This document shows positions 29,521 through 37,585 of a stretch of DNA of 64,000 bases, piece after piece (the first letter of the stretch is position 1; each line of letters begins with the position of its first letter). Both the position numbers and the translations under genes were made by a program. This DNA comes from Escherichia coli (GTDB lineage: Bacteria; Pseudomonadota; Gammaproteobacteria; Enterobacterales; Enterobacteriaceae). The stretch lies in the NCBI RefSeq assembly GCF_024298765.1, contig NZ_CP101210.1, one strand, 5' to 3'. The notes beneath the pieces were generated by a model that did no database searches, was not told where the DNA came from, and saw only the letters and a list, made by a program, of their open reading frames with translations.

Positions 29521-29928
29521 TTATTTTATTGATTTATTTTTACGCGCTTTAAGCATTTCTTCGAAGAGTTTGTTGAAGTTTTCTACTCTTGCGCGCATTT
29601 CAGACAGCAAGGCTTCCTGCTCGGAAGATGGAAGAGCATCGAATAATTCGATCAATTCTTTGTGGTTGGGAGTTAGCTCTGTTTCCACATGAAGTTCTTG
29701 TGCAGGCACTGGTGCCTTGTCTTCGTCACCAAACATTAGCCATGTAGGTGAGCACTTCAGAGCATCCGCTAAAGCAAACAATCGTTTTCCGACTGGCTGG
29801 GTTTCGTCTCTTTCCCATTGTGAAATTGTGACGTGAGCAACTCCAGCGAGGCGCGCAGCTTCTCGTTGTGTTAAGCGTAATTCTTTTCGTCGCGCCAGAA
29901 CTCGCTGGCCTAGGGTTCTTGTATCCAT
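29521..29928 (-). CDS. dicA: DicA-type (XRE/cI-like) prophage repressor
   Basis: 135 aa. HTH LTQREAARLAGVAHVTISQWERDE. The C-terminal part MRARVENFNKLFEEMLKARK is close to K-12 DicA as recalled. Divergent from dicC. Confidence 0.85.
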   Translation of the reverse strand: MDTRTLGQRVLARRKELRLTQREAARLAGVAHVTISQWERDETQPVGKRLFALADALKCSPTWLMFGDEDKAPVPAQELHVETELTPNHKELIELFDALPSSEQEALLSEMRARVENFNKLFEEMLKARKNKSIK

Positions 29929-29995: not shown

Positions 29996-30008
29996 AGAGG
30001 GGGCTTTG

Positions 30009-30236
30009 ATGCTTAAAGTTGACGCAATTACTTTTTTTGGCAGCAAAACAAAGCTTGCCAATGCCGCAGGAGTGAGACTGGCAAGTGTTGCTGCTTGGGG
30101 GATACTGGTTCCTGAAGGTCGCGCGATGCGTCTACAGGAGGCATCTGGCGGGGAGCTTCAGTATGATCCCAAAGTTTATGACGAATATCGTAAGACGAAG
30201 CGGGCGGGGCGGTTGAACAATGAAAATCACTCCTGA
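30009..30236 (+). CDS. dicC: Cro-like regulator DicC
   Basis: ATG 30009 (the track used TTG 30006) with RBS AAGAGGGGG. The C-terminal half EGRAMRLQEASGGELQYDPKVYDEYRK..RAGRLNNENHS matches DicC as recalled. Confidence 0.85.
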   Translation: MLKVDAITFFGSKTKLANAAGVRLASVAAWGILVPEGRAMRLQEASGGELQYDPKVYDEYRKTKRAGRLNNENHS

Positions 30237-30741
30237 ACAGGCTCGTGAGGCTCTGGATGCCTGGATATGTCGACCAGGAATGACACAGGAGCAGGCGACG
30301 ATATTAATCACTGAAGCATTCTGGGCTTTGAAAGAGCGCCCGAACATCGATGTTCAGCGTGTCACATATGAAGGTGGCGCGGTTGATCAGCGAGCGCTTA
30401 GCGTTAATCGAGTGAAGATATTCGAACGCTGGAAGGCTATCGACACCAGGGATAAGCGTGAAAAGTTCACAGCGCTAGTGCCTGCAATTATGGAGGCTAT
30501 CCGGATTAGTGATTTCAGGTTGTATCGTGAGATCAGTGATGGAAAAAGTATTACGTACATGATCGCCGGGTTAAATAAAGAATATGGCGATGTGGTGGAA
30601 TCCGGACTGCTTTTTGCAGATCCTGCCGTTGTAGATCGTGAAACTGACGAACTTATAGAAAAAGCAATTGCTTTCAAGCTTGCGTATCGACAGCAATACC
30701 AACAAAAAGCTGGATGGAATTATGAGTCTTCTTTTTGCTGA
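30220..30741 (+). CDS. YdaT-like (cII-position) protein
   Basis: 173 aa, overlaps the dicC end by 17 nt. Position after the cro analogue is typical of YdaT-family genes. The family call is positional only. Confidence 0.5.
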   Translation: MKITPEQAREALDAWICRPGMTQEQATILITEAFWALKERPNIDVQRVTYEGGAVDQRALSVNRVKIFERWKAIDTRDKREKFTALVPAIMEAIRISDFRLYREISDGKSITYMIAGLNKEYGDVVESGLLFADPAVVDRETDELIEKAIAFKLAYRQQYQQKAGWNYESSFC

Positions 30742-31687
30742 ACGCCCACTGGTTATAAACACGCAGCTGGCAATGAAAATCGGCTTAAACGAAGCCATTG
30801 TTTTGCAACAACTGCACTACTGGTTGAGAGATACCAACTCCGGTATGGAATGTGATGGTGTTCGCTGGATTTATAACACAACGGAACAATGGCTGGAACA
30901 GTTCCCATTCTGGTCAGAGTCAACGTTAAAGCGCGCGTTTGCAAGTCTGAAAACGCTGGGGCTTTTGCGTTGTGAAAAGCTCAATAAATCAAAGCGCGAT
31001 ATGACCAATTTCTACACGATCAACTATGGGAGCGAGCTTTTAGATGGTGGCAAATTGAACGAATCCATCGGTTCAAAATGCGCCGCTCCATCAGGTCAAA
31101 ATGACACGATGGAAGAGGTCAAAATGAAACGCTCCATTGGTTCAAAACGACCCAATGTCATCGGGTCAAAATGGCCTGATGATCTTACAGAGAATACAAC
31201 AGAGATTACTACAGAGAATAAAAACACTTTTCGTCCGGAAGCTTCGCAACCGGACCCGCAGACGACTGAACAGGATTTTTTAACCCGGAACCCCGACGCG
31301 GTTGTGTTTAGTGTGAAAAAACGCCAGTGGGGTAGCAGGGAGGATCTGGCGTGTGCGCAGTGGATTTGGGGGCGGATCGTGAACCTTTACGAACAGGCTG
31401 CCAGCGACGATGGAGAGATCATGCGACCAAAAGAGCCTAACTGGACAGCCTGGGCCAATGACGTGCGCACAATGCGGATGCTGGATGGCAGAAGCCACAG
31501 ACAAATTTGCGAAATGTTTGGTCGGGTACAGCGGGATCCATTCTGGGTAAAAAACATCATGAGCCCGTCAAAACTCCGCGAAAAATGGGACGAACTGGTC
31601 ATCCGCCTGGGACGTTCACCTGTACAGCGTTGTGTGAATCATATTTCTGAACCGGATACAGAAATTCCGCCTGGTTTCAGGGGATAA
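30722..31687 (+). CDS. replication initiator, lambda O-like
   Basis: Start at MSLLFAERPLVINTQL (ATG 30722). The C-terminal segment WGSREDLACAQWIW...NWTAWANDVRTMRMLDGRSHRQICEMF...FWVKNIMSPSKLREKWDEL parallels the lambda O C-terminus as recalled. Iterons lie inside the gene. Confidence 0.8.
   Translation: MSLLFAERPLVINTQLAMKIGLNEAIVLQQLHYWLRDTNSGMECDGVRWIYNTTEQWLEQFPFWSESTLKRAFASLKTLGLLRCEKLNKSKRDMTNFYTINYGSELLDGGKLNESIGSKCAAPSGQNDTMEEVKMKRSIGSKRPNVIGSKWPDDLTENTTEITTENKNTFRPEASQPDPQTTEQDFLTRNPDAVVFSVKKRQWGSREDLACAQWIWGRIVNLYEQAASDDGEIMRPKEPNWTAWANDVRTMRMLDGRSHRQICEMFGRVQRDPFWVKNIMSPSKLREKWDELVIRLGRSPVQRCVNHISEPDTEIPPGFRG
31064..31173 (+). repeat. origin iterons (five copies) inside the O-like gene, followed by an AT-rich ACAGAGA-repeat tract
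   Basis: GGTTCAAAATG / AGGTCAAAATG / AGGTCAAAATG / GGTTCAAAACG / GGGTCAAAATG, with the core C at 31074, 31097, 31120, 31143 and 31167 (spacing 23, 23, 23, 24). Then TACAGAGAATACAACAGAGATTACTACAGAGAATAAAAACA (31186-31226). Confidence 0.8.
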
Positions 31688-31727
31688 GTGTTGATTTCAG
31701 GTCATGAGATAATTTTAAGGGGGACTT

Positions 31728-32129
31728 GTGGCAAAAGTTTTTACACAAGAAGAGCGGGAAAAAATTAAAGGGCAGGTTGTTGAACTCGTACGCCGGAGTG
31801 GGCGTGAGACGTTACGGCAACTGGAAGTCAAGACAGGTGCGACAAGATATCTGATGAGCGTTCTCGCAAGAGAGCTGGTTGCCAGCGGCGATGTATACAA
31901 CTCTGGTTACGGGTTATTCCCGTCTGAACAGGCGCGTAAGGACTGGCAAAATGCCCGTAAAAAGCTCTCAAGGGCAAAGCTGAAGAAACCATCTGCGGTT
32001 GATCCGGACCTTATCTGGTCATTACCTGACGGAGAAATACGTCGCTACGACAGGCGTCAGAACATAATCTGCCGCGAGTGCCGGAAGAGTGAAGTTATGC
32101 AGCGCATACTGGCATTTTATCAGGGATAA
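31728..32129 (+). CDS. hypothetical 133-aa protein in the position where a P/helicase-loader gene is expected
   Basis: GTG 31728 follows AAGGGGGA. Possible N-terminal wHTH-like segment, basic centre, C-terminal ICRECRK. No resemblance to lambda P as recalled. Confidence 0.6.
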   Translation: MAKVFTQEEREKIKGQVVELVRRSGRETLRQLEVKTGATRYLMSVLARELVASGDVYNSGYGLFPSEQARKDWQNARKKLSRAKLKKPSAVDPDLIWSLPDGEIRRYDRRQNIICRECRKSEVMQRILAFYQG

Positions 32130-32190
32130 TGTTAGATATTTTAGACGTTACTAGATTAAAAAGCATTAGTTCAGGAGTGAATTGACATTC

Positions 32191-32433
32191 TCATTTTTCA
32201 TGGCACAGGGTAGATCTGGCGTGGTTGTCCGCTTTGTGCCAACAGCGGACGTTACTAACGAAACTGTGAGTTAAAAACGGGAGCTGGTCACCTCCATCCC
32301 GCGAAATGGAATTCAAAAATGCCCTCATGTACGGTACTTCTAGTCTGATGTGAGCATTTTCGTGGATTTTTTCGAGCCACTCCAACGAATGATTACATTC
32401 AGTTTCGGGCACTAAAACGTCATAAATCCGCAA
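32191..32433 (-). other. doubtful 80-codon ORF, probable gene remnant
   Basis: Only a TTG start right after an in-frame stop, with no RBS. No ORF continues upstream in any frame. Confidence 0.25.
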
Positions 32434-32662
32434 GTTGAGGAGTAGCGATCAGCCAATTGGTTAAAAAACAGCTTTAATTCCCTTTTTCAAGCAGGCTCCT
32501 TGTCGCACGTCTGGTGCATCCAATTCATTTCAGTTACCCTGATGCCATACTGGCACGGACTAGCTCTCTTAATTGGCGCTGGTTTGTTAACCTTGTCCGC
32601 TGTCGGGTCTTTGTAAGTTGTAATTCCTAAACTAGCATAATTTTATTATAAGGCCTCTTACT

Positions 32663-33688
32663 ATGCACATTTTATCTGTTTCAAAAAAGGAAGTTGGAAG
32701 AGCTGGGGATAGATTAGTTTCTCAGTTTGGTACAGGTGAAAAATATAAAGAGGAAGATGTACAAATTCTTCATGAGTGGAGGATGTTGCATTTATATCCT
32801 TTAAGTAAAATACAATTTTATATGGAAAGAGAGGCTATTTCCTTAAACAAAAATGCGTTACTATCCTCTAGAATTAAGAGGATGCCTTCCATTGTTACTA
32901 AGCTTTCTAGATTTCCTGATATGAAGTTAAATAAGATGCAGGATCTTGGTGGGTGCCGGGCTATTTTAAATAATCTGGATCAAGTGTATGATTTAGTTAA
33001 TAAAATAAAATCATCTAAATTCTCACATGAACTAGTTAGAATGGATGATTACATGATAGACGTGAAAGATTCTGGTTATAGAAGCTTTCATATGGTCTAT
33101 TCATTCCAAAATAAAAAATTTCCATCTTTAAATGGGTTGCGCATTGAAATGCAAATAAGAACAGCTATTCAACATAGCTGGGCTACAGCAGTTGAAATGG
33201 TTGGTTTGTTTCGAAAGGAATCATTGAAATCTGGTTTTGGTGATGCAAGATGGCTTAGGTTTTTTGAATTGGTATCAGAGCTTTTTTATAAACTTGAGTA
33301 TGAAAAAGAACCATCTGGGAGTTATATAAAAATATCAGAAGAATTAAGTTATTTATCCGTCGAGTTGAATGTTTTCGATATATTAGCTGCTTACAATGCC
33401 GTAGTTAGCCATATTGAGGGTAGCAAAAAATATGATAAAGGACTTTGCATAATTGTTGTTGATACCATAAAGCGGAATATAAATATAAAGAGCTTCGAAA
33501 ATCACAATCATGCGAAGGCGGCAGAAGCTTATGTCGAGTCTGAAAAATACTGCGCGGAAAATAAAGGCTGTGAAGTGGCTATGGTTTCTGTTAGTTCAAT
33601 TAGTGAATTAAAAAATGCATATCCTGCTTACTTTTTAGATACGAAAACTTTTTTAAATTATCTCAGTAGGTATGTTTTTATAAAATAA
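32663..33688 (+). CDS. RelA/SpoT-like small alarmone synthetase protein with C-terminal extension; candidate fused toxSAS (CapRel-type) toxin-antitoxin / anti-phage defence
   Basis: RSH synthetase blocks in canonical order: R70-IKRMPSIVTK80, D94-LGGCR99, G138-YRSFH143, E162-MQIRTAIQHSWA174. No HD hydrolase, TGS or ACT domains. About 140 aa of C-terminal extension with Y320-PA-Y323 near the end. Strongly AT-rich relative to its flanks. Confidence 0.8.
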   Translation: MHILSVSKKEVGRAGDRLVSQFGTGEKYKEEDVQILHEWRMLHLYPLSKIQFYMEREAISLNKNALLSSRIKRMPSIVTKLSRFPDMKLNKMQDLGGCRAILNNLDQVYDLVNKIKSSKFSHELVRMDDYMIDVKDSGYRSFHMVYSFQNKKFPSLNGLRIEMQIRTAIQHSWATAVEMVGLFRKESLKSGFGDARWLRFFELVSELFYKLEYEKEPSGSYIKISEELSYLSVELNVFDILAAYNAVVSHIEGSKKYDKGLCIIVVDTIKRNINIKSFENHNHAKAAEAYVESEKYCAENKGCEVAMVSVSSISELKNAYPAYFLDTKTFLNYLSRYVFIK

Positions 33689-34121
33689 AAAATGTTATCT
33701 GGAGTGGTCTGAATTCTACTAACTTAGTTTTTTCAGACCGCTTCTGACCACAATGGCCTGTGAGGTTCTGCTGCTAGTCAACATAAAATAACAAAGCCGG
33801 CAGGTGGTGGTTGTTGTAAAGTTATTCAATGACATTCATGGAGGCTTAAGCGAATTATTTGTCCCTGGTCGGTATGGTGGCAACAGCTTGTTGCGAGAAT
33901 TTGGCTAATTTGGACTGACTTCCGCTCCTTGCTCAAAGCGGACTAGAAGGTTAGCTTGTGTCGGACTTTGCGTATTAAAAGAAGTGCTGGTGGTGACTAG
34001 TGGTTGAGCCCCATTTCCACAGAAAAAATCAGAGAAACTATACCCAATAGTTGTATTGAATCACTGACGAGACAGCCTCATATTCATCAGGACTGGTGTA
34101 CGTCCAATACAGGAGGTTGTG

Positions 34122-34211
34122 GTGCTGGTTCTCAAATGTGCGCTGGCTATTACGGCTGTAATGGCGATTTATTGTCTTGCTATTGTTCTTATGGATCGCC
34201 TTTCTGACTGA
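34122..34211 (+). CDS. candidate 29-aa hydrophobic peptide (type-I-toxin-like)
   Basis: AGGAGG (34111-16), 5 nt, GTG 34122 gives M-LVLKCALAITAVMAIYCLAIVLMDRLSD. The SD can pair with ACAGCCTC (34072-79). Overlaps the Cys/Gly-rich track ORF in another frame. Confidence 0.4.
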   Translation: MLVLKCALAITAVMAIYCLAIVLMDRLSD

Positions 34212-34422
34212 TTTCATATTGGCGAGGTAAAGGTAGTTAAGTAGAATGGCTGCGGGTGCTTGAGGCTATCTGCCTCGGGCATGAACACCAAAGGCAGATA
34301 GAGAAAAGCCCCAGTTAACATTACGCGTCCTGCAAGACGCTTAACATTAATCTGAGGCCAATTTCATGCTAGACACATGTAGGTTAGCCTCTTACGTGCC
34401 GGAAGGCAAGGAGAAGCAGGCT

Positions 34423-34578
34423 ATGAAGCAGCAAAAGGCGATGTTAATCGCCCTGATCGTCATCTGTTTAACCGTCATAGTGACGGCACTGGTAACGAGG
34501 AAAGACCTCTGCGAGGTACGAATCCGAACCGGCCAGACGGAGGTCGCTGTCTTCACAGCTTACGAACCTGAGGAGTAA
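34423..34578 (+). CDS. hokD: Hok-family membrane toxin (RelF)
   Basis: MKQQKAMLIALIVICLTVIVTALVTRKDLCEVRIRTGQTEVAVFTAYEPEE (51 aa) with RBS AAGGAG. The track ORF start at 34366 is an in-frame upstream extension. Confidence 0.9.
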   Translation: MKQQKAMLIALIVICLTVIVTALVTRKDLCEVRIRTGQTEVAVFTAYEPEE

Positions 34579-34646
34579 GAGACCCGGCGAGGGAGAAATC
34601 CCTCGCCACCTCTGATGTGGCAGGCATCCTCAACGCACCCGCACTT

Positions 34647-34675
34647 AACCCGCTTCGGCGGGTTTTTGTTTTTAT
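34647..34675 (+). terminator. rho-independent terminator after hokD
   Basis: AACCCGC-TTCG-GCGGGTT followed by TTTGTTTTT. Confidence 0.75.
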
Positions 34676-34794
34676 TTTCAACGCGTTTGAAGTTCTGGAC
34701 GGTGCCGGAATAGAATCAAAAATACTTAAGTAGCGCGCAGGGATAAGAGGGATGGTCCCTTAAAGGGGAGAGCTAATTATCCGGAAGGATTCTG

Positions 34795-35046
34795 ATGATG
34801 AACATCGAAGAACTGCGTAAAATTTTTTGTGAAGATGGCCTCTATGCTGTGTGCGTTGAAAATGGAAATCTTGTTAGTCATTACCGCATTATGTGTTTGC
34901 GAAAGAATGGGGCTGCGTTAATTAATTTTGTGGATGGTCGAGTGACAGACGGATTTATCTTGCGCGAAGGTGAGTTTGTCACTTCATTACAGGCACTGAA
35001 AGAGATCGGAATAAAAGCAGGCTTTTCAGCTTTTGCAGAAGAATAA
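34795..35046 (+). CDS. rem: Qin Rem protein
   Basis: 83 aa, MMNIEELRKIFCEDGLYAVCVENGNLVSHYRIMCLRKNGAALINF..., matches K-12 Rem as recalled. Confidence 0.85.
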   Translation: MMNIEELRKIFCEDGLYAVCVENGNLVSHYRIMCLRKNGAALINFVDGRVTDGFILREGEFVTSLQALKEIGIKAGFSAFAEE

Positions 35047-35112
35047 ACTCATCTACAATCTTGCGCGGGGCTGAACTCCCGCTGAGTAACACCGTGCCAC
35101 CGGAGAAAACCG

Positions 35113-35391
35113 ATGGCACGCAACGTAAAATATTACAATTCTGATAATTCGCCCGTTCTTGCCTGCACGCACGGGCGGTATTCTCACGCATTCAAGTCTG
35201 AATGGTTCCAGCACCCTCCATGCACTGCAGAACAGGCCGAATGGCTGATTCATTCTTACTGCAGGCGCGGGTTCGAGGTTAAGAAAGCTCTCAGTCTCGA
35301 CTATCGGCACTGGATAATCTCTGTCAGGCTGCCTTATTCCGAACGCCCACCACGTGCGTCCCGCACTTTCCAGCAACGGATCTGGAGGTAA
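35113..35391 (+). CDS. hypothetical 92-aa protein translationally coupled to ydfU
   Basis: ATG 35113, 7 nt after GGAG. Its stop TAA (35389-91) lies inside the ydfU RBS region. Confidence 0.55.
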   Translation: MARNVKYYNSDNSPVLACTHGRYSHAFKSEWFQHPPCTAEQAEWLIHSYCRRGFEVKKALSLDYRHWIISVRLPYSERPPRASRTFQQRIWR

Positions 35392-35392
35392 C

Positions 35393-36442
35393 GTGCGGGT
35401 ATTACTTAGACCTGTTCTGGTGCCTGAGCTTGGGCTGGTGGTCCTTAAGCCGGGCCGTGAATCCATACAGATATTTCATAATCCTCGAGTGCTGGTGGAA
35501 CCGGAACCAAAAAGCATGCGTAATCTGCCATCCGGAGTCGTTCCTGCCGTTCGCCAGCCGCTGGCGGAAGACAAAACATTGCTGCCGTTTTTTAGTAACG
35601 AACGGGTGATTCGTGCTGCTGGCGGCGTTGGCGCATTGTCTGACTGGCTATTACGTCATATTACATCCTGCCAGTGGCCTAATGGCGATTACCATCACAC
35701 TGAAACAGTCATTCACCGTTATGGTACCGGCGCAATGGTGTTGTGCTGGCACTGCGACAACCAACTGCGTGACCAGACATCGGAATCACTGGAGCTGCTT
35801 GCTCAACAAAATCTGACAGCATGGGTGATTGACGTCATCCGTCACGCAATAAGCGGTACGCAGGAGCGGGAATTATCTTTGGCTGAATTATCCTGGTGGG
35901 CGGTCTGCAATCAGGTGGTGGATGCACTACCTGAGGCTGTATCGCGTCGTTCGCTGGGATTACCAGCGGAAAAAATCTGCTCGGTGTACCGCGAAAGCGA
36001 CATCGTACCGGGAGAGCAGACCGCCACCAGCATATTGAAACAACGCACAAAAAATCTTGCACCGTTGCCTTACGCCCACCAGCAACAAAAACCACCACAG
36101 GAAAAGACGGTGGTAAGCATCAACGTTGATCCAGAGTCTCCGGAATCTTTCATGAAGCTGCCTAAACGTCGCCGCTGGGTTAAGGAGAAATACACTCGTT
36201 GGGTTAAGACACAGCCGTGTGCTTGCTGCGGTATGCCAGCCGACGATCCGCATCATCTGATTGGTCACGGGCAGGGCGGAATGGGAACAAAAGCACATGA
36301 TCTCTTTGTGTTGCCTTTGTGCAGAAAGCATCACAACGAGCTGCATACGGATACAGTGGCATTTGAAGAGAAGTATGGCTCCCAACTGGAGCTGATATTT
36401 CGTTTTATCGATCGCGCGCTGGCAACTGGCGTACTGGCGTAA
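35393..36442 (+). CDS. ydfU: DUF968 protein with C-terminal HNH-like Cys/His motif
   Basis: GTG 35393 follows GGAGG, giving (M)RVLLRPVLVPELGLVVLKPGRE..., 349 aa. C-terminal CACCG...DPHHL...CRKHHNELH. Confidence 0.85.
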   Translation: MRVLLRPVLVPELGLVVLKPGRESIQIFHNPRVLVEPEPKSMRNLPSGVVPAVRQPLAEDKTLLPFFSNERVIRAAGGVGALSDWLLRHITSCQWPNGDYHHTETVIHRYGTGAMVLCWHCDNQLRDQTSESLELLAQQNLTAWVIDVIRHAISGTQERELSLAELSWWAVCNQVVDALPEAVSRRSLGLPAEKICSVYRESDIVPGEQTATSILKQRTKNLAPLPYAHQQQKPPQEKTVVSINVDPESPESFMKLPKRRRWVKEKYTRWVKTQPCACCGMPADDPHHLIGHGQGGMGTKAHDLFVLPLCRKHHNELHTDTVAFEEKYGSQLELIFRFIDRALATGVLA

Positions 36443-36455
36443 GTGGAGAACGAGC

Positions 36456-37208
36456 ATGAACCTTGAAGCCTTACCAAAATATTACTCCCCAAAATCTCCA
36501 AAATTGAGCGATGACGCTCCAGCGACAGGCACCGGTTGTTTAACAATTACGGATGTAATGGCAGCGCAGGGGATGGTGCAGTCGAAAGCACCACTTGGGT
36601 TGGCCTTATTTCTGGCAAAAGTTGGTGTTCAGGACCCTCAGTTTGCGATTGAAGGCCTGCTAAATTACGCGATGGCACTGGATAACCCGACATTGAACAA
36701 ATTGAGTGAAGAAATCCGGTTACAGATTATTCCTTACCTCGTGAATTTTGCCTTTGCTGATTACTCCAGGTCTGCGGCAAGTAAGGCTCGCTGTGAGCAT
36801 TGTTCAGGTACGGGATTTTATAATGTATTGCGCGAAGTGGTGAAACACTACAGACGCGGGGAATCTGTAATCAAGGAAGAATGGGTGAAGGAACTATGTC
36901 AGCATTGCCATGGTAAGGGCGAAGTCAGCACAGCGTGCAGAGGGTGTAAGGGTAAAGGGATTGTTCTGGATGAAAAAAGAACCCGGTTTCATGGCGTACC
37001 GGTATATAAGATTTGTGGGCGTTGTAATGGAAACCGATTTAGTCGTTTACCGACCACGCTGGCACGACGTCATGTCCAGAAGCTGGTACCAGACCTGACC
37101 GATTATCAGTGGTATAAGGGGTATGCGGACGTCATTGATAAACTGGTAACAAAGTGCTGGCAGGAAGAAGCATACGCGGAAGCGCAATTGAGGAAGGTGA
37201 CGAGATAA
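36456..37208 (+). CDS. quuQ: late-gene antiterminator Q
   Basis: 250 aa. Four DnaJ-type zinc knuckles ([31 protein letters not shown]). Followed by a PR'-like promoter and terminator. Confidence 0.88.
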
Positions 37209-37239
37209 ATGATTTTTGCTGAAGATGGCGACATGATGT

Positions 37240-37268
37240 TTGCATTTTTCAAAAAACATGGATAAGAT
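37240..37268 (+). promoter_or_regulatory. candidate late promoter PR'
   Basis: TTGCAT (37240-45), 17 nt, TAAGAT (37263-68), located 32 nt after the Q stop. Confidence 0.55.
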
Positions 37269-37314
37269 TCTCTCAACGATGGGCTTTGTGTATCCGACGT
37301 TTAGAAAAAAGTAG

Positions 37315-37339
37315 AAAACCCGCTTATAAGCGGGTTTTT
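37315..37339. terminator. tR'-like rho-independent terminator (symmetrical A-run/T-run)
   Basis: AAAACCCGC-TTATAA-GCGGGTTTTT, about 45-65 nt downstream of the putative PR' start. Confidence 0.75.
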
Positions 37340-37374
37340 GTGCTTTAAATGGGGCAATAGAGATATTGAATCTC

Positions 37375-37585
37375 ATCCCGGGATAAACATTGGCAGTTGA
37401 AGGTCCACGCGAACCATTTATCCGGCAAAATTCCACGCGTAATCCTGTGGTAATTTCTTCTGCATCTCGAAGATTGAGAGCTGAAACGTGAAGCTGGGCA
37501 TCGATACGCCATCGGATGGGAATATAAGACCTTTGCTGCTTTTGTAGTCAAAGTTTTTGACAATTCCTGTCATTTTAGGGGACAG
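37375..37585 (-). pseudogene. cspF: decayed cspF-like cold-shock gene
   Basis: AAGGAG RBS is followed by CTG where the ATG is expected (37585). [22 protein letters not shown] is followed by a 1-nt deficit near 37508. The remainder ([42 protein letters not shown]) is in another frame, and the stop is lost. Confidence 0.7.

Follow-up and report, generated by a model that had tools for sequence, protein, structure and literature searches.

In a 64,000-nucleotide stretch of an Escherichia coli genome (contig NZ_CP101210.1 of assembly GCF_024298765.1; hereafter the window), which holds a Qin-type lambdoid prophage integrated beside rspB, the attachment site of the cryptic prophage Qin in K-12, we analyzed the interval between a gene for a DUF977/Ren-like exclusion protein and hokD (the Ren-hok slot; 32130 is the first base past the DUF977/Ren-like stop codon and 34423 begins the hok ATG). 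The survey described below supports the view that this is a hypervariable cargo slot at a conserved position, with much of its cargo related to toxins or defence. We consider it probable that the slot is occupied here by a foreign cassette encoding a CapRel-type protein, swapped by recombination at two palindromes. The explanation is carried by observations on the protein (homology, fold and conservation of catalytic residues) and on the slot (limits of the cassette, diversity and reassortment of its cargo, positions of the junctions), from which we infer enzymatic activity, anti-phage function, trigger, expression in the lysogen and recombination mechanism. The parts of the slot are as follows.

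32130-32226: backbone spacer from the Ren-like gene to the left palindrome, 91-96% shared with prophages having other cargos
32227-32250 (motif 32228-32249): left (L-type) palindrome, GTCCGCTTT-GTGCCA-ACAGCGGAC
about 32251-33920, plus strand: cargo cassette, comprising an upstream non-coding region, the CapRel-like gene and a 3' tail (breakpoints; copy in contig L013; GC 0.31-0.34)
32663-33688, plus strand: predicted CapRel-type fused toxin-antitoxin gene of the toxic small alarmone synthetase (toxSAS) class, 341 aa, with an N-terminal tRNA-pyrophosphokinase-like toxSYNTH domain and a C-terminal pseudo-zinc-finger antitoxin/sensor domain
33921-33943 (motif 33921-33942): right (R-type) palindrome, TCCGCTCC-TTGCTC-AAAGCGGAC
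33944-34218, plus strand: backbone segment with a small hydrophobic open reading frame (ORF), 91-99% identical in genomes without the cassette

The limits of the cargo were defined by aligning the window with ten prophages that have both flanks but other genes between them, and with an unrelated metagenomic contig (L013, Logan SRR4292775_169). On the left, homology stops at 32241-32256 in six prophages and right past the DUF977 stop codon in two backbones of the Shiga toxin-producing E. coli type; on the right, five prophages regain homology at 33921-33931, three at 34175-34189, one at 34234, and K-12 at 34409. The cassette is missing from prophages having both flanks, and L013 carries it at 96.6% identity over 32225-33917, beginning at the left palindrome and set among other flanking genes. 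Based on these breakpoints and on the L013 copy, the mobile unit is an AT-rich segment of 1.7 kb, from about 32251 to 33920, of foreign origin and with one encoded protein; the GC content of the RelA/SpoT gene is 0.31-0.34 vs. 0.45-0.53 in the flanks. An earlier reading of the sequence alone had run the island to 34422, which is too far, for the cargo ends near 33920 and 33921-34218 is common to prophages with other cargos.

Both ends of the cassette are marked by the same motif. The pattern TCCGCT-N6-14-AGCGGA occurs exactly twice in the 64-kb window, against 0.03 occurrences expected, and both copies (TCCGCT-N10-AGCGGA, 22-24 bp) are at the cassette ends. In six independent E. coli cargo types the left site (GTCCGCTTT-GTGCCA-nnAGCGGAC) does not vary through the central GTGCCA, and the base after it is the first of the cargo-specific sequence. 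At the right site it is the left arm that differs between cargos, being degenerate in some, and the sequence from GCTCAAAGCGGACT onward, which lies 270-287 bp ahead of the hok promoter, is the same throughout the 18 cargo length classes described below. Where several cassettes are arrayed (L028, L013), neighbouring units are separated by an R-type site followed, after a conserved 20-bp spacer (CCTTCAGCTCAG...), by an L-type site. We regard the palindromes as REP-like (repetitive extragenic palindromic) elements serving as joints of cassette exchange. A role as intrinsic terminators was considered unlikely, as they lack a T-run and fold at -5 to -8 kcal/mol as single-stranded hairpins. A search of 31600-35200 against Rfam (E ≤ 1) matched neither the palindromes nor the 33689-34218 spacer; apart from the hok leader, it gave only weak hits of terminator-like kind.

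The slot was surveyed in 5426 complete E. coli genomes and in 120 viral contigs (IMG/VR) fetched via the left palindrome. Flanks matching the Ren-hok region were found in more than 3000 of the genomes, and 59 of the contigs reach hok, forming 18 length classes with about 16 cargo types of 1.3-6.1 kb; at least 16 cargo types thus occupy the slot. Among those of the viral contigs are PD-T7-1 (4e-157) and AbiH with a partner gene (7.8e-69). The E. coli genomes contribute a DUF7380/DUF4209 protein (PADLOC PDC-S39, 8e-103), an Sll1717-family P-loop ATPase, QueH, an alpha/beta hydrolase, a two-gene unit weakly matching a HEPN/RES N-terminal domain, DUF7167 with small ORFs, and several hypothetical proteins. 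The CapRel-type cassette itself is present in 43 of the 5426 genomes, mostly avian isolates, in a single copy each and with identities of at least 99.8%. At least seven cargos are found on a single backbone haplotype pair (98.5% or more identical over 400 bp on the left and 600 bp on the right), and several cargos are each found on different backbone haplotypes. The sequence-only reading had proposed cassette replacement at a toxin-antitoxin or defence hotspot, and the number of cargos, their accumulation on one haplotype pair and their spread across haplotypes all bear this out; the opposite possibility, that the arrangement is universal and without cargo variability, is decisively contradicted by the same observations. 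A synthetic query joining the left and right flanks found no empty slot in the 5426 genomes, and the flanks never lie within 730 bp of each other. E. coli B was rejected as an empty slot: the only short state seen, it carries a deletion from inside DUF977 to 34099.

The single protein of the cassette was matched by Pfam RelA_SpoT at residues 69-175 only (4e-18), by the PADLOC candidate single-gene system PDC-S33 (5e-119) and by PHROG 4773 (4.8e-134). It aligns end to end (residues 6-338, E 2.6e-34) with PDB entries 7ZTB and 9ERV, labelled 'Salmonella tRNA pyrophosphokinase CapRel' in the fold search, and is 28% identical over its full length to CapRel of Salmonella phage SJ46. An AlphaFold (AF2) model built from 67 homologues (predicted local distance difference test score 88.5, predicted TM score 0.86) consists of a synthetase fold, three connecting helices, a strand-strand-helix-strand region (260-310) and a C-terminal helical extension, with strands at 260-267, 272-278 and 303-310, a helix at 283-299 and final helices at 313-338. 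The topology of this C-terminal region is that of the pseudo-zinc-finger antitoxin domain of CapRel (Zhang et al., PMC9712102), and 7ZTB (the top match, TM score 0.69 over 353 columns) and 9ERV were the only full-length fold matches. R70, R99, G138-Y139, E162, Q164 and R166 are invariant among the 67 homologues, and the conserved synthetase residues align with R79, R116 and Y155 of the SJ46 protein. These correspond to the adenine-coordinating arginines and the G-loop tyrosine, which, together with a YXXY hinge, have been described for CapRel-SJ46 (PMC9712102). The hinge has its counterpart in a C-terminal AYPAYF (Y320, Y323), which aligns with AYPNYF of the SJ46 protein and in which Y320 is nearly invariant and P321 invariant among the homologues. 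Considering the sequence and the modelled fold together, we take the product of 32663-33688 to be a full-length homologue of CapRel-SJ46, a fused toxin-antitoxin and a divergent new member of the CapRel family, in which no separate antitoxin is expected because toxin and antitoxin are joined in one chain.

By homology with CapRel-SJ46, the N-terminal toxSAS domain would stop translation by pyrophosphorylating tRNA 3' ends, and the C-terminal pseudo-zinc-finger domain would restrain the toxin in cis until bound by a protein from an infecting phage, the outcome being abortive infection that would protect the lysogen population. Enzymatic activity, anti-phage function and trigger are all assigned here by homology and should be read as predicted. 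Related prophages exchange the cassette for many others by recombination, with junctions always inside the two conserved 22-24-bp palindromes.

It might be argued instead that the gene is an orphan or decaying toxSAS with a lost antitoxin, or an ordinary small alarmone synthetase (SAS) whose (p)ppGpp or (pp)pApp serves the physiology of prophage or host and not defence. There is indeed no second gene in the cassette, Pfam sees the RelA_SpoT domain alone, and NCBIfam returns weak, sub-threshold matches to GTP diphosphokinases. However, in both alignment and fold the 160-residue C-terminal half corresponds to the CapRel antitoxin domain, whereas housekeeping SAS enzymes match residues 67-177 only (E about 1e-10), with a fold match to the N-terminal half only. 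The ORF is moreover intact and 97-100% conserved across hundreds of sequences, and the single-gene architecture is kept across Enterobacterales, Vibrio and beyond. We therefore judge an orphan toxin or a housekeeping enzyme to be very improbable. The description of an AT-rich toxSAS gene in the sequence-only reading holds as far as the 341-codon RelA_SpoT ORF and its GC content go, but the gene is not that of an orphan toxin and is of the fused CapRel type. Homologues stand alone, with no conserved neighbour or partner, in varied mobile or defence-like contexts, such as a Rop/ProQ plasmid, a Pectobacterium island beside AbiEii and a Serratia locus beside three dCTP-deaminase-like genes; AbiEii and dCTP-deaminase-like genes are frequently found next to them. 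A 65%-identical paralogue occurs in other E. coli prophages (L014-L018), in the classical moron slot between the Q antiterminator and holin genes and on the opposite strand.

Several observations weigh against the interpretation of the slot as holding a CapRel-type cassette exchanged at its palindromes. Identity to the only characterized CapRel is low (28%), and PDC-S33 is listed by PADLOC as a candidate only. The root-mean-square deviation from 7ZTB is high (10 Å), the domain arrangement of the model differing from that of the crystal; this gap could reflect closed vs. open states of the protein. Scans gave no convincing sigma-70 promoter upstream of the CapRel-like gene and no intrinsic terminator downstream, and its expression in the lysogen is therefore assumed. 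Among the cargos, QueH, the alpha/beta hydrolase, NUDIX/HAD-like pairs and many unknowns are not recognizable defence genes, so that 'defence hotspot' fits a part of them. Finally, the palindromes are common outside prophages, around ordinary genes, and are not dedicated to the Ren-hok slot.

The extent of this dispersal is considerable. The exact 22-bp L-type sequence (20 specified bases) was found at 120 or more loci in a one-genome-per-species collection (loci L146-L265), the matches listed including Pantoea, Erwinia, Mixta, Klebsiella, Citrobacter, Enterobacter, Rahnella and Pseudomonas, as well as many metagenome-assembled genomes (MAGs) of Xanthobacteraceae, Pseudolabrys and Hyphomicrobiales and a few of Acidobacteriota and Actinomycetota. 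The extended consensus (A)TGTCCGCTTT-N6-AAAGCGGACAT, of the form (A)TG...CAT, is conserved to the base across phyla, and a second palindrome with the same arms usually lies about 20 bp upstream in those genomes, giving intergenic doublets. In the alphaproteobacterial MAGs such doublets recur every 1-2.5 kb between ordinary genes (histidine kinase, ABC binding protein, glycosyltransferase). The Enterobacterales copies flank AraC+LysE, ArsR-like+ACT, a phytase-like gene, an autotransporter and LysR+flavin reductase, and also PD-Lambda-4_A, an Mrr-like nuclease and an ApeA-HEPN+SIR2 pair beside a P4-like integrase. The palindromes were rejected as a lambdoid-specific feature, the DUF977/hok backbone accompanying none among the 120 matches listed, and likewise as defence-specific markers, as they also flank AraC/LysE, LysR, autotransporter and histidine-kinase genes.

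How, then, are cassettes exchanged? One explanation treats the palindromes as passive sites resembling REP or bacterial interspersed mosaic elements (BIMEs), or as short linker homologies, between which general or phage-type (RecET/Red) homologous recombination acts when lambdoid genomes are co-resident, with selection keeping only junctions at gene borders. The intergenic doublets around ordinary genes in Xanthobacteraceae MAGs and the copies flanking AraC/LysE, LysR and autotransporter genes in Erwinia, Citrobacter and others fit this explanation, as do the RecE-like exonuclease encoded in the Qin-type prophage family and the thermodynamic weakness of the hairpins. Against it, the breaks fall within a few bp of the 6-bp centre in every cargo class, which is sharper than a 22-bp homology by itself would predict, and stacked cassettes keep the R-site, 20-bp spacer, L-site unit. 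Another explanation is that the palindromes are core sites, with 8-11-bp arms and a 6-bp centre, for a site-specific tyrosine recombinase, and that cassettes move in the manner of integron cassettes or Acinetobacter pdif modules. The 11-6-11-like architecture is conserved to the base across phyla, and the division between arms that follow the backbone and arms that follow the cargo falls exactly at the centre. A 200-aa Phage_integrase-family protein (Pfam 2e-17) is encoded, in five contigs, directly after a hybrid half-site, TCCRCTCC-TCGCTC-ATAAGGGA, and an R-type site closes the unit at its other end, an arrangement like attL and attR with one overlap. But the central hexamers of the L and R sites differ (GTGCCA vs. 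TCGCTC), a mismatch incompatible with classical L-by-R excision, no recombinase lies close by in most cassettes or genomic contexts, and neither a circular intermediate nor an empty site was observed. The window itself contains no relative of the 200-aa recombinase at E ≤ 1, which again favors passive homology. Cumulatively, we give short-homology recombination slightly better than even chances and favor it as the mechanism of exchange, and consider site-specific recombination at the palindromes unlikely.

The 200-aa tyrosine recombinase was seen in L028 (IMG/VR 2531839149_000018), L064, L079, L101 and L112, inside some multi-cassette arrays; a 14-bp inverted repeat precedes its ATG, and a diverged C-terminal fragment (50% identity) occurs in L109 and L064. 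Its involvement in the exchange at Ren-hok is hypothetical. No integrase was found in or near the slot in the window, and palindromes of 22-24 bp without GTTRRRY cores set the locus apart from integrons. An 11-6-11-like geometry, comparable with that of the 28-bp dif and pdif sites, is present, and the arms GTCCGCTTT/AAAGCGGAC do not look like dif arms. A broader proposal, which we hold to be doubtful, is that the palindromes are the recombination sites of an undescribed cassette system spread across phyla, with GTGCCA (L type) and TCGCTC (R type) centres. Units with one arm per end may then be inserted, stacked (R site, 20-bp spacer, L site) and swapped, and the enzyme could be the approximately 200-aa tyrosine recombinase or another sequence-specific enzyme. 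If this were true, the Ren-hok slot would be one docking platform among others in Erwiniaceae, Klebsiella, Citrobacter, plasmids and P4-like satellites, with a REP-like expansion in Xanthobacteraceae.

A different account would make the cassette the direct counterpart of K-12 relBE: a module swapped at one site, giving three stacked growth-arrest modules, maybe in one operon reading into hokD. In its favor, relBE lies immediately upstream of hokD in K-12, the window has no relBE (RelB and RelE homologues are absent from all six frames of the 64 kb, tblastn with the K-12 proteins giving best E values of 2.1 and 1.0, as the sequence-only reading had already noted of its ORFs), cargo varies at the Ren-hok position, and all three ORFs are on the plus strand. 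The location of the K-12 junction speaks against it. Homology to K-12 begins at 34409, 14 bp before the hokD ATG (NC_000913 1645288), where relBE abuts, and upstream of that point K-12 shares no hok promoter, leader, mok start or sok; the fusion in K-12 therefore removed these elements. This junction is about 500 bp to the right of that of the other cargos, all of which join at the conserved R palindrome near 33921-33931, and it is a single invariant junction within a flxA-ydfV-relBE-hokD block that is unchanged in 1142 of the 5426 complete genomes. In the window, moreover, hok has its own promoter and a complete leader, and the small ORF belongs to the backbone and not to the island. We therefore regard a direct relBE counterpart as quite improbable. 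The K-12 relBE-hokD arrangement looks like a single derived rearrangement that cut the hok leader, not a routine cassette swap. The proposal that the cassette occupies the relBE slot is right in that K-12 relBE holds the same relative position directly upstream of hokD, and goes too far in treating it as a simple alternative cassette. K-12 Qin shares with the window prophage its family, its attachment site beside rspB and the right flank hokD-rem-ydfU-Q; its junction lies inside the hok leader and not at a palindrome, and the O-like and Ren-like genes are also deleted. K-12 keeps one R-like site, inverted, between flxA and ydfW.

The region between the right palindrome and rem could be resolved into the following features.

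34119-34211, plus strand: small hydrophobic ORF, 30 codons from the first GTG, 29 aa from the likely start GTG at 34122, with AGGAGG at 34111-34116
34219-34247, plus strand: hok promoter TTGGCG-17-TAGAAT (promoter scan), directly 5' of the Rfam-aligned hok leader
34254-34672, plus strand: full-length hok mRNA, with terminator at 34647-34664
34300-34409, minus strand: putative sok antisense gene, promoter TTGCCT (34404-34409) -17- TAACCT (34381-34386), within the Rfam match
34366-34578, plus strand: mok, 70 codons, overlapping hok (Pfam HOK_GEF 3e-23, residues 25-66)
34423-34578, plus strand: hokD coding sequence, 51 aa, 100% identical to K-12 HokD

Together, these features make 34219-34672 a complete hok/sok locus, in which promoter, leader, mok and sok are all present. 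The leader matches RF01794 at 34254-34428 with 117 bits (E 2.9e-27; gathering score 59), and there is complementarity between the 5' tac element, GGGTGCTTGAGG at 34254, and the 3' fbi element, CCTCAACGCACCC at 34628. The sok promoter is assigned by analogy with sok of plasmid R1, and the putative Sok RNA would run from about 34374 to 34300. A weak isrK-like Rfam match at 34587-34668 (25.7 bits, gathering score 50) covers the hok 3' untranslated region and terminator and most likely reflects terminator hairpins. The suggestion that the island might be one transcription unit reading into hokD finds no support, given the separate promoter and full leader of hok. In the older literature the hokD (relF) locus of K-12 is reported to be without these regulatory elements, in agreement with the K-12 junction; the window shows an intact hokD/sokD locus, and the textbook relBEF operon of K-12 would be a derived fusion without the hok leader.

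The frame of the small ORF is open in 58 of 59 independent IMG/VR loci. Its first GTG is GTC in 24 of the 59, and the second GTG (34122, 5 nt past AGGAGG), which is always kept, is for this reason the likelier start. Divergent alleles differ by 2-4 synonymous vs. 2-4 conservative non-synonymous codon changes. The ORF is also present, mostly unannotated, in the lambdoid phages mEp460, Tritos, Evi and HannyBb (tblastn against phages), and gave no family match; the same holds for the 67-aa (plus-strand) and 59-aa (minus-strand) ORFs overlapping it. We see in these sequence comparisons mild evidence for a real 29-aa membrane peptide. A 30-codon hydrophobic ORF behind AGGAGG thus exists as first described, although in the backbone and not in the island. 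The accompanying idea of three growth-arrest modules in a row on one strand is correct as to the strand, with family support restricted to Hok and the toxSAS domain, and is overstated: the three modules are a probable self-inhibited immune sensor, a conserved peptide and Hok.

Within the cassette, two further features were noted on either side of the CapRel-like gene.

32191-32433, minus strand: 80-codon ORF across the left junction, probably non-coding, without a match in Pfam, NCBIfam, PHROG or PADLOC
33693-33752: inverted repeat directly behind the stop codon of the CapRel-like gene, with 21-nt arms that are 76% complementary and without a T-run

The 80-codon ORF had been taken for a start-less minus-strand gene remnant. 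The ORF exists, but no recognizable parent gene does: the four hidden Markov model libraries named gave no family, and its only two relatives in 5.8 billion protein clusters are near-identical and represent the same cassette region. The remnant was rejected on these grounds. The last 22 or so codons (the C-terminal end) lie inside the backbone and palindrome, and the ORF probably belongs to the non-coding upstream part of the cassette. Downstream of the CapRel-like gene, the 370-430 bp said to be without a credible ORF are so, as 33689-34118 has none, and the inverted repeat there was not called as an intrinsic terminator. Decayed cassettes were seen in three genomes, with an IS903B insertion in one and with 3' fragments only (33525-33920, 33837-33920) in two others (NZ_CM142782, GPEC1258; NZ_CP126343, DAX4; NZ_CP073939, MB53). 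In L013 a 1.5-kb segment (1146-2711; DUF4145 and a 106-aa ORF) is inserted within the 3' tail of the cassette, between two copies of an 18-bp sequence corresponding to 33900-33917 of the window, the cassette-side copy being identical at 14 of 18 bases.

The slot is embedded in a conserved early region, whose genes are listed here.

29521-29928, minus strand: repressor
30006-30236: cro
30220-30741: ydaT-like
30668-31687: O-like replication gene (339 aa; PHROGs 'replication initiation O-like')
31728-32129, plus strand: DUF977/Ren-like exclusion protein gene, the left conserved flank (Pfam DUF977 3.8e-29; PHROG 142 'Ren-like exclusion protein' 6.5e-45)
34795-37208, plus strand: right conserved flank with rem, a 92-aa ORF, ydfU (DUF968/HNH) and the Q antiterminator, 98.7% to K-12 Qin (Pfam DUF968 1.3e-76, Antiterm 7.7e-55)
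34795-35046: rem
35354-36442: ydfU
36456-37208: Q

An identical region in strain 104 is annotated with int, xis, exonuclease, ydfD, dicB ... DicA-like repressor, Cro and YdaT, followed by O-like protein, DUF977, RelA/SpoT protein, hokD, rem, ydfU, Q, cspF/B, lysis genes and terminase. That hokD and everything to its right are conserved was correctly recognized from the sequence, HokD being identical to the K-12 protein at 51 of 51 residues and 34409-37383 (hok, rem, ydfU, Q/ydfT) 98.7% identical to K-12 Qin. K-12 YdfX, for its part, corresponds to the N-terminal 93 aa of the YdaT-like protein (97.8% identical). On the left, the DUF977/Ren-like gene is kept beside every cargo type examined. Based on the PHROGs labels, Ren-like for DUF977 and O-like for the 339-aa protein, the interval is the equivalent of the start of the lambda nin region. 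The left boundary does not, as had been thought, coincide with the place of a missing helicase loader: in relatives that possess an ATP-binding loader, this sits after the O-like gene and before DUF1627/DUF977, on the upstream side of the Ren-like gene. In every Qin-type prophage examined, with any cargo, the Ren-like gene directly follows the O-like gene without a loader, and this is also so in the isolated phage HannyBb (PP925841, 31320-32748, no separate loader gene between the two). The O-like protein has DnaD/DnaT-loader-like similarity at its C-terminus, which suggests that the replication module does without a P/DnaC-type gene.

These results have practical consequences. An apparently antitoxin-less toxSAS becomes a testable single-gene candidate immunity protein, and one that, given 28% identity and a different C-terminal domain sequence, probably senses another phage protein than does CapRel-SJ46. 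A slot in which most cargos have no assigned function, and several are validated or candidate systems, is a cheap source of new defence candidates. Nucleotide-precise junctions bounded by palindromes, together with the wide distribution of the latter, provide a handle on the exchange of phage accessory cassettes.

Comparison with known systems places the Ren-hok slot close to several of them. Integron (attC) cassettes and the pdif modules of Acinetobacter (XerC/D, 11-6-11) are directional cassettes bounded by short imperfect palindromes and form stacked arrays. The Ren-hok cassettes resemble them in being stacked, delimited by palindromes and occasionally adjacent to a tyrosine recombinase, and differ in having no IntI, attI or Pc, sites of 22-28 bp vs. 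60-140 bp for attC, and a sequence unrelated to dif. Like REP elements and BIMEs, the boundary palindromes are short and intergenic, frequently paired at a distance of about 20 bp, and numerous within single genomes of some taxa, with REP-like dispersal over many contigs in Xanthobacteraceae and Pseudolabrys MAGs and two copies, both at cassette borders, in the window. Classical REPs are lineage-specific, whereas the boundary palindromes are conserved across phyla and are unrelated to the E. coli REP consensus.

The hok/sok loci of plasmid R1 and of Sakai Sp5 (hokW/sokW; PMC8621323) have the same hok coding sequence, overlapping mok, antisense sok region, tac/fbi complementarity, and own promoter and terminator; in the window the locus is chromosomal and prophage-borne, its Hok is K-12 HokD, and the leader absent from K-12 is present. 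The defence hotspots of P2, P4 and integrative and conjugative elements (PMC9122126, bioRxiv 10.1101/2022.05.12.491691, PMC13586616) likewise hold diverse known and candidate defence systems at a fixed position, and these reassort among near-identical backbones as in the Ren-hok slot, which differs in that a specific palindrome pair bounds its cargo and that it was never found empty. We did not find the Ren-hok position of Qin or lambdoid phages named in the literature on such hotspots, nor a description of the slot or the motif in literature on PDC-S33, DUF977 and prophages, the palindrome sequence or lambdoid defence hotspots. CapRel-SJ46 (PMC9712102, PMC11578894) is likewise prophage-encoded and shares with the protein described here the single ORF, toxSYNTH and pseudo-zinc-finger domains, catalytic arginines, G-loop tyrosine and YXXY, with alignment and fold match running the full length. 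At 373 aa vs. 341 aa and 28% identity, the two are distant, the protein of the window falling into PADLOC PDC-S33 and PHROG 4773, and CapRel-SJ46 resides in a P1-like phage-plasmid, whereas the gene analyzed here lies in a lambdoid nin-region slot.

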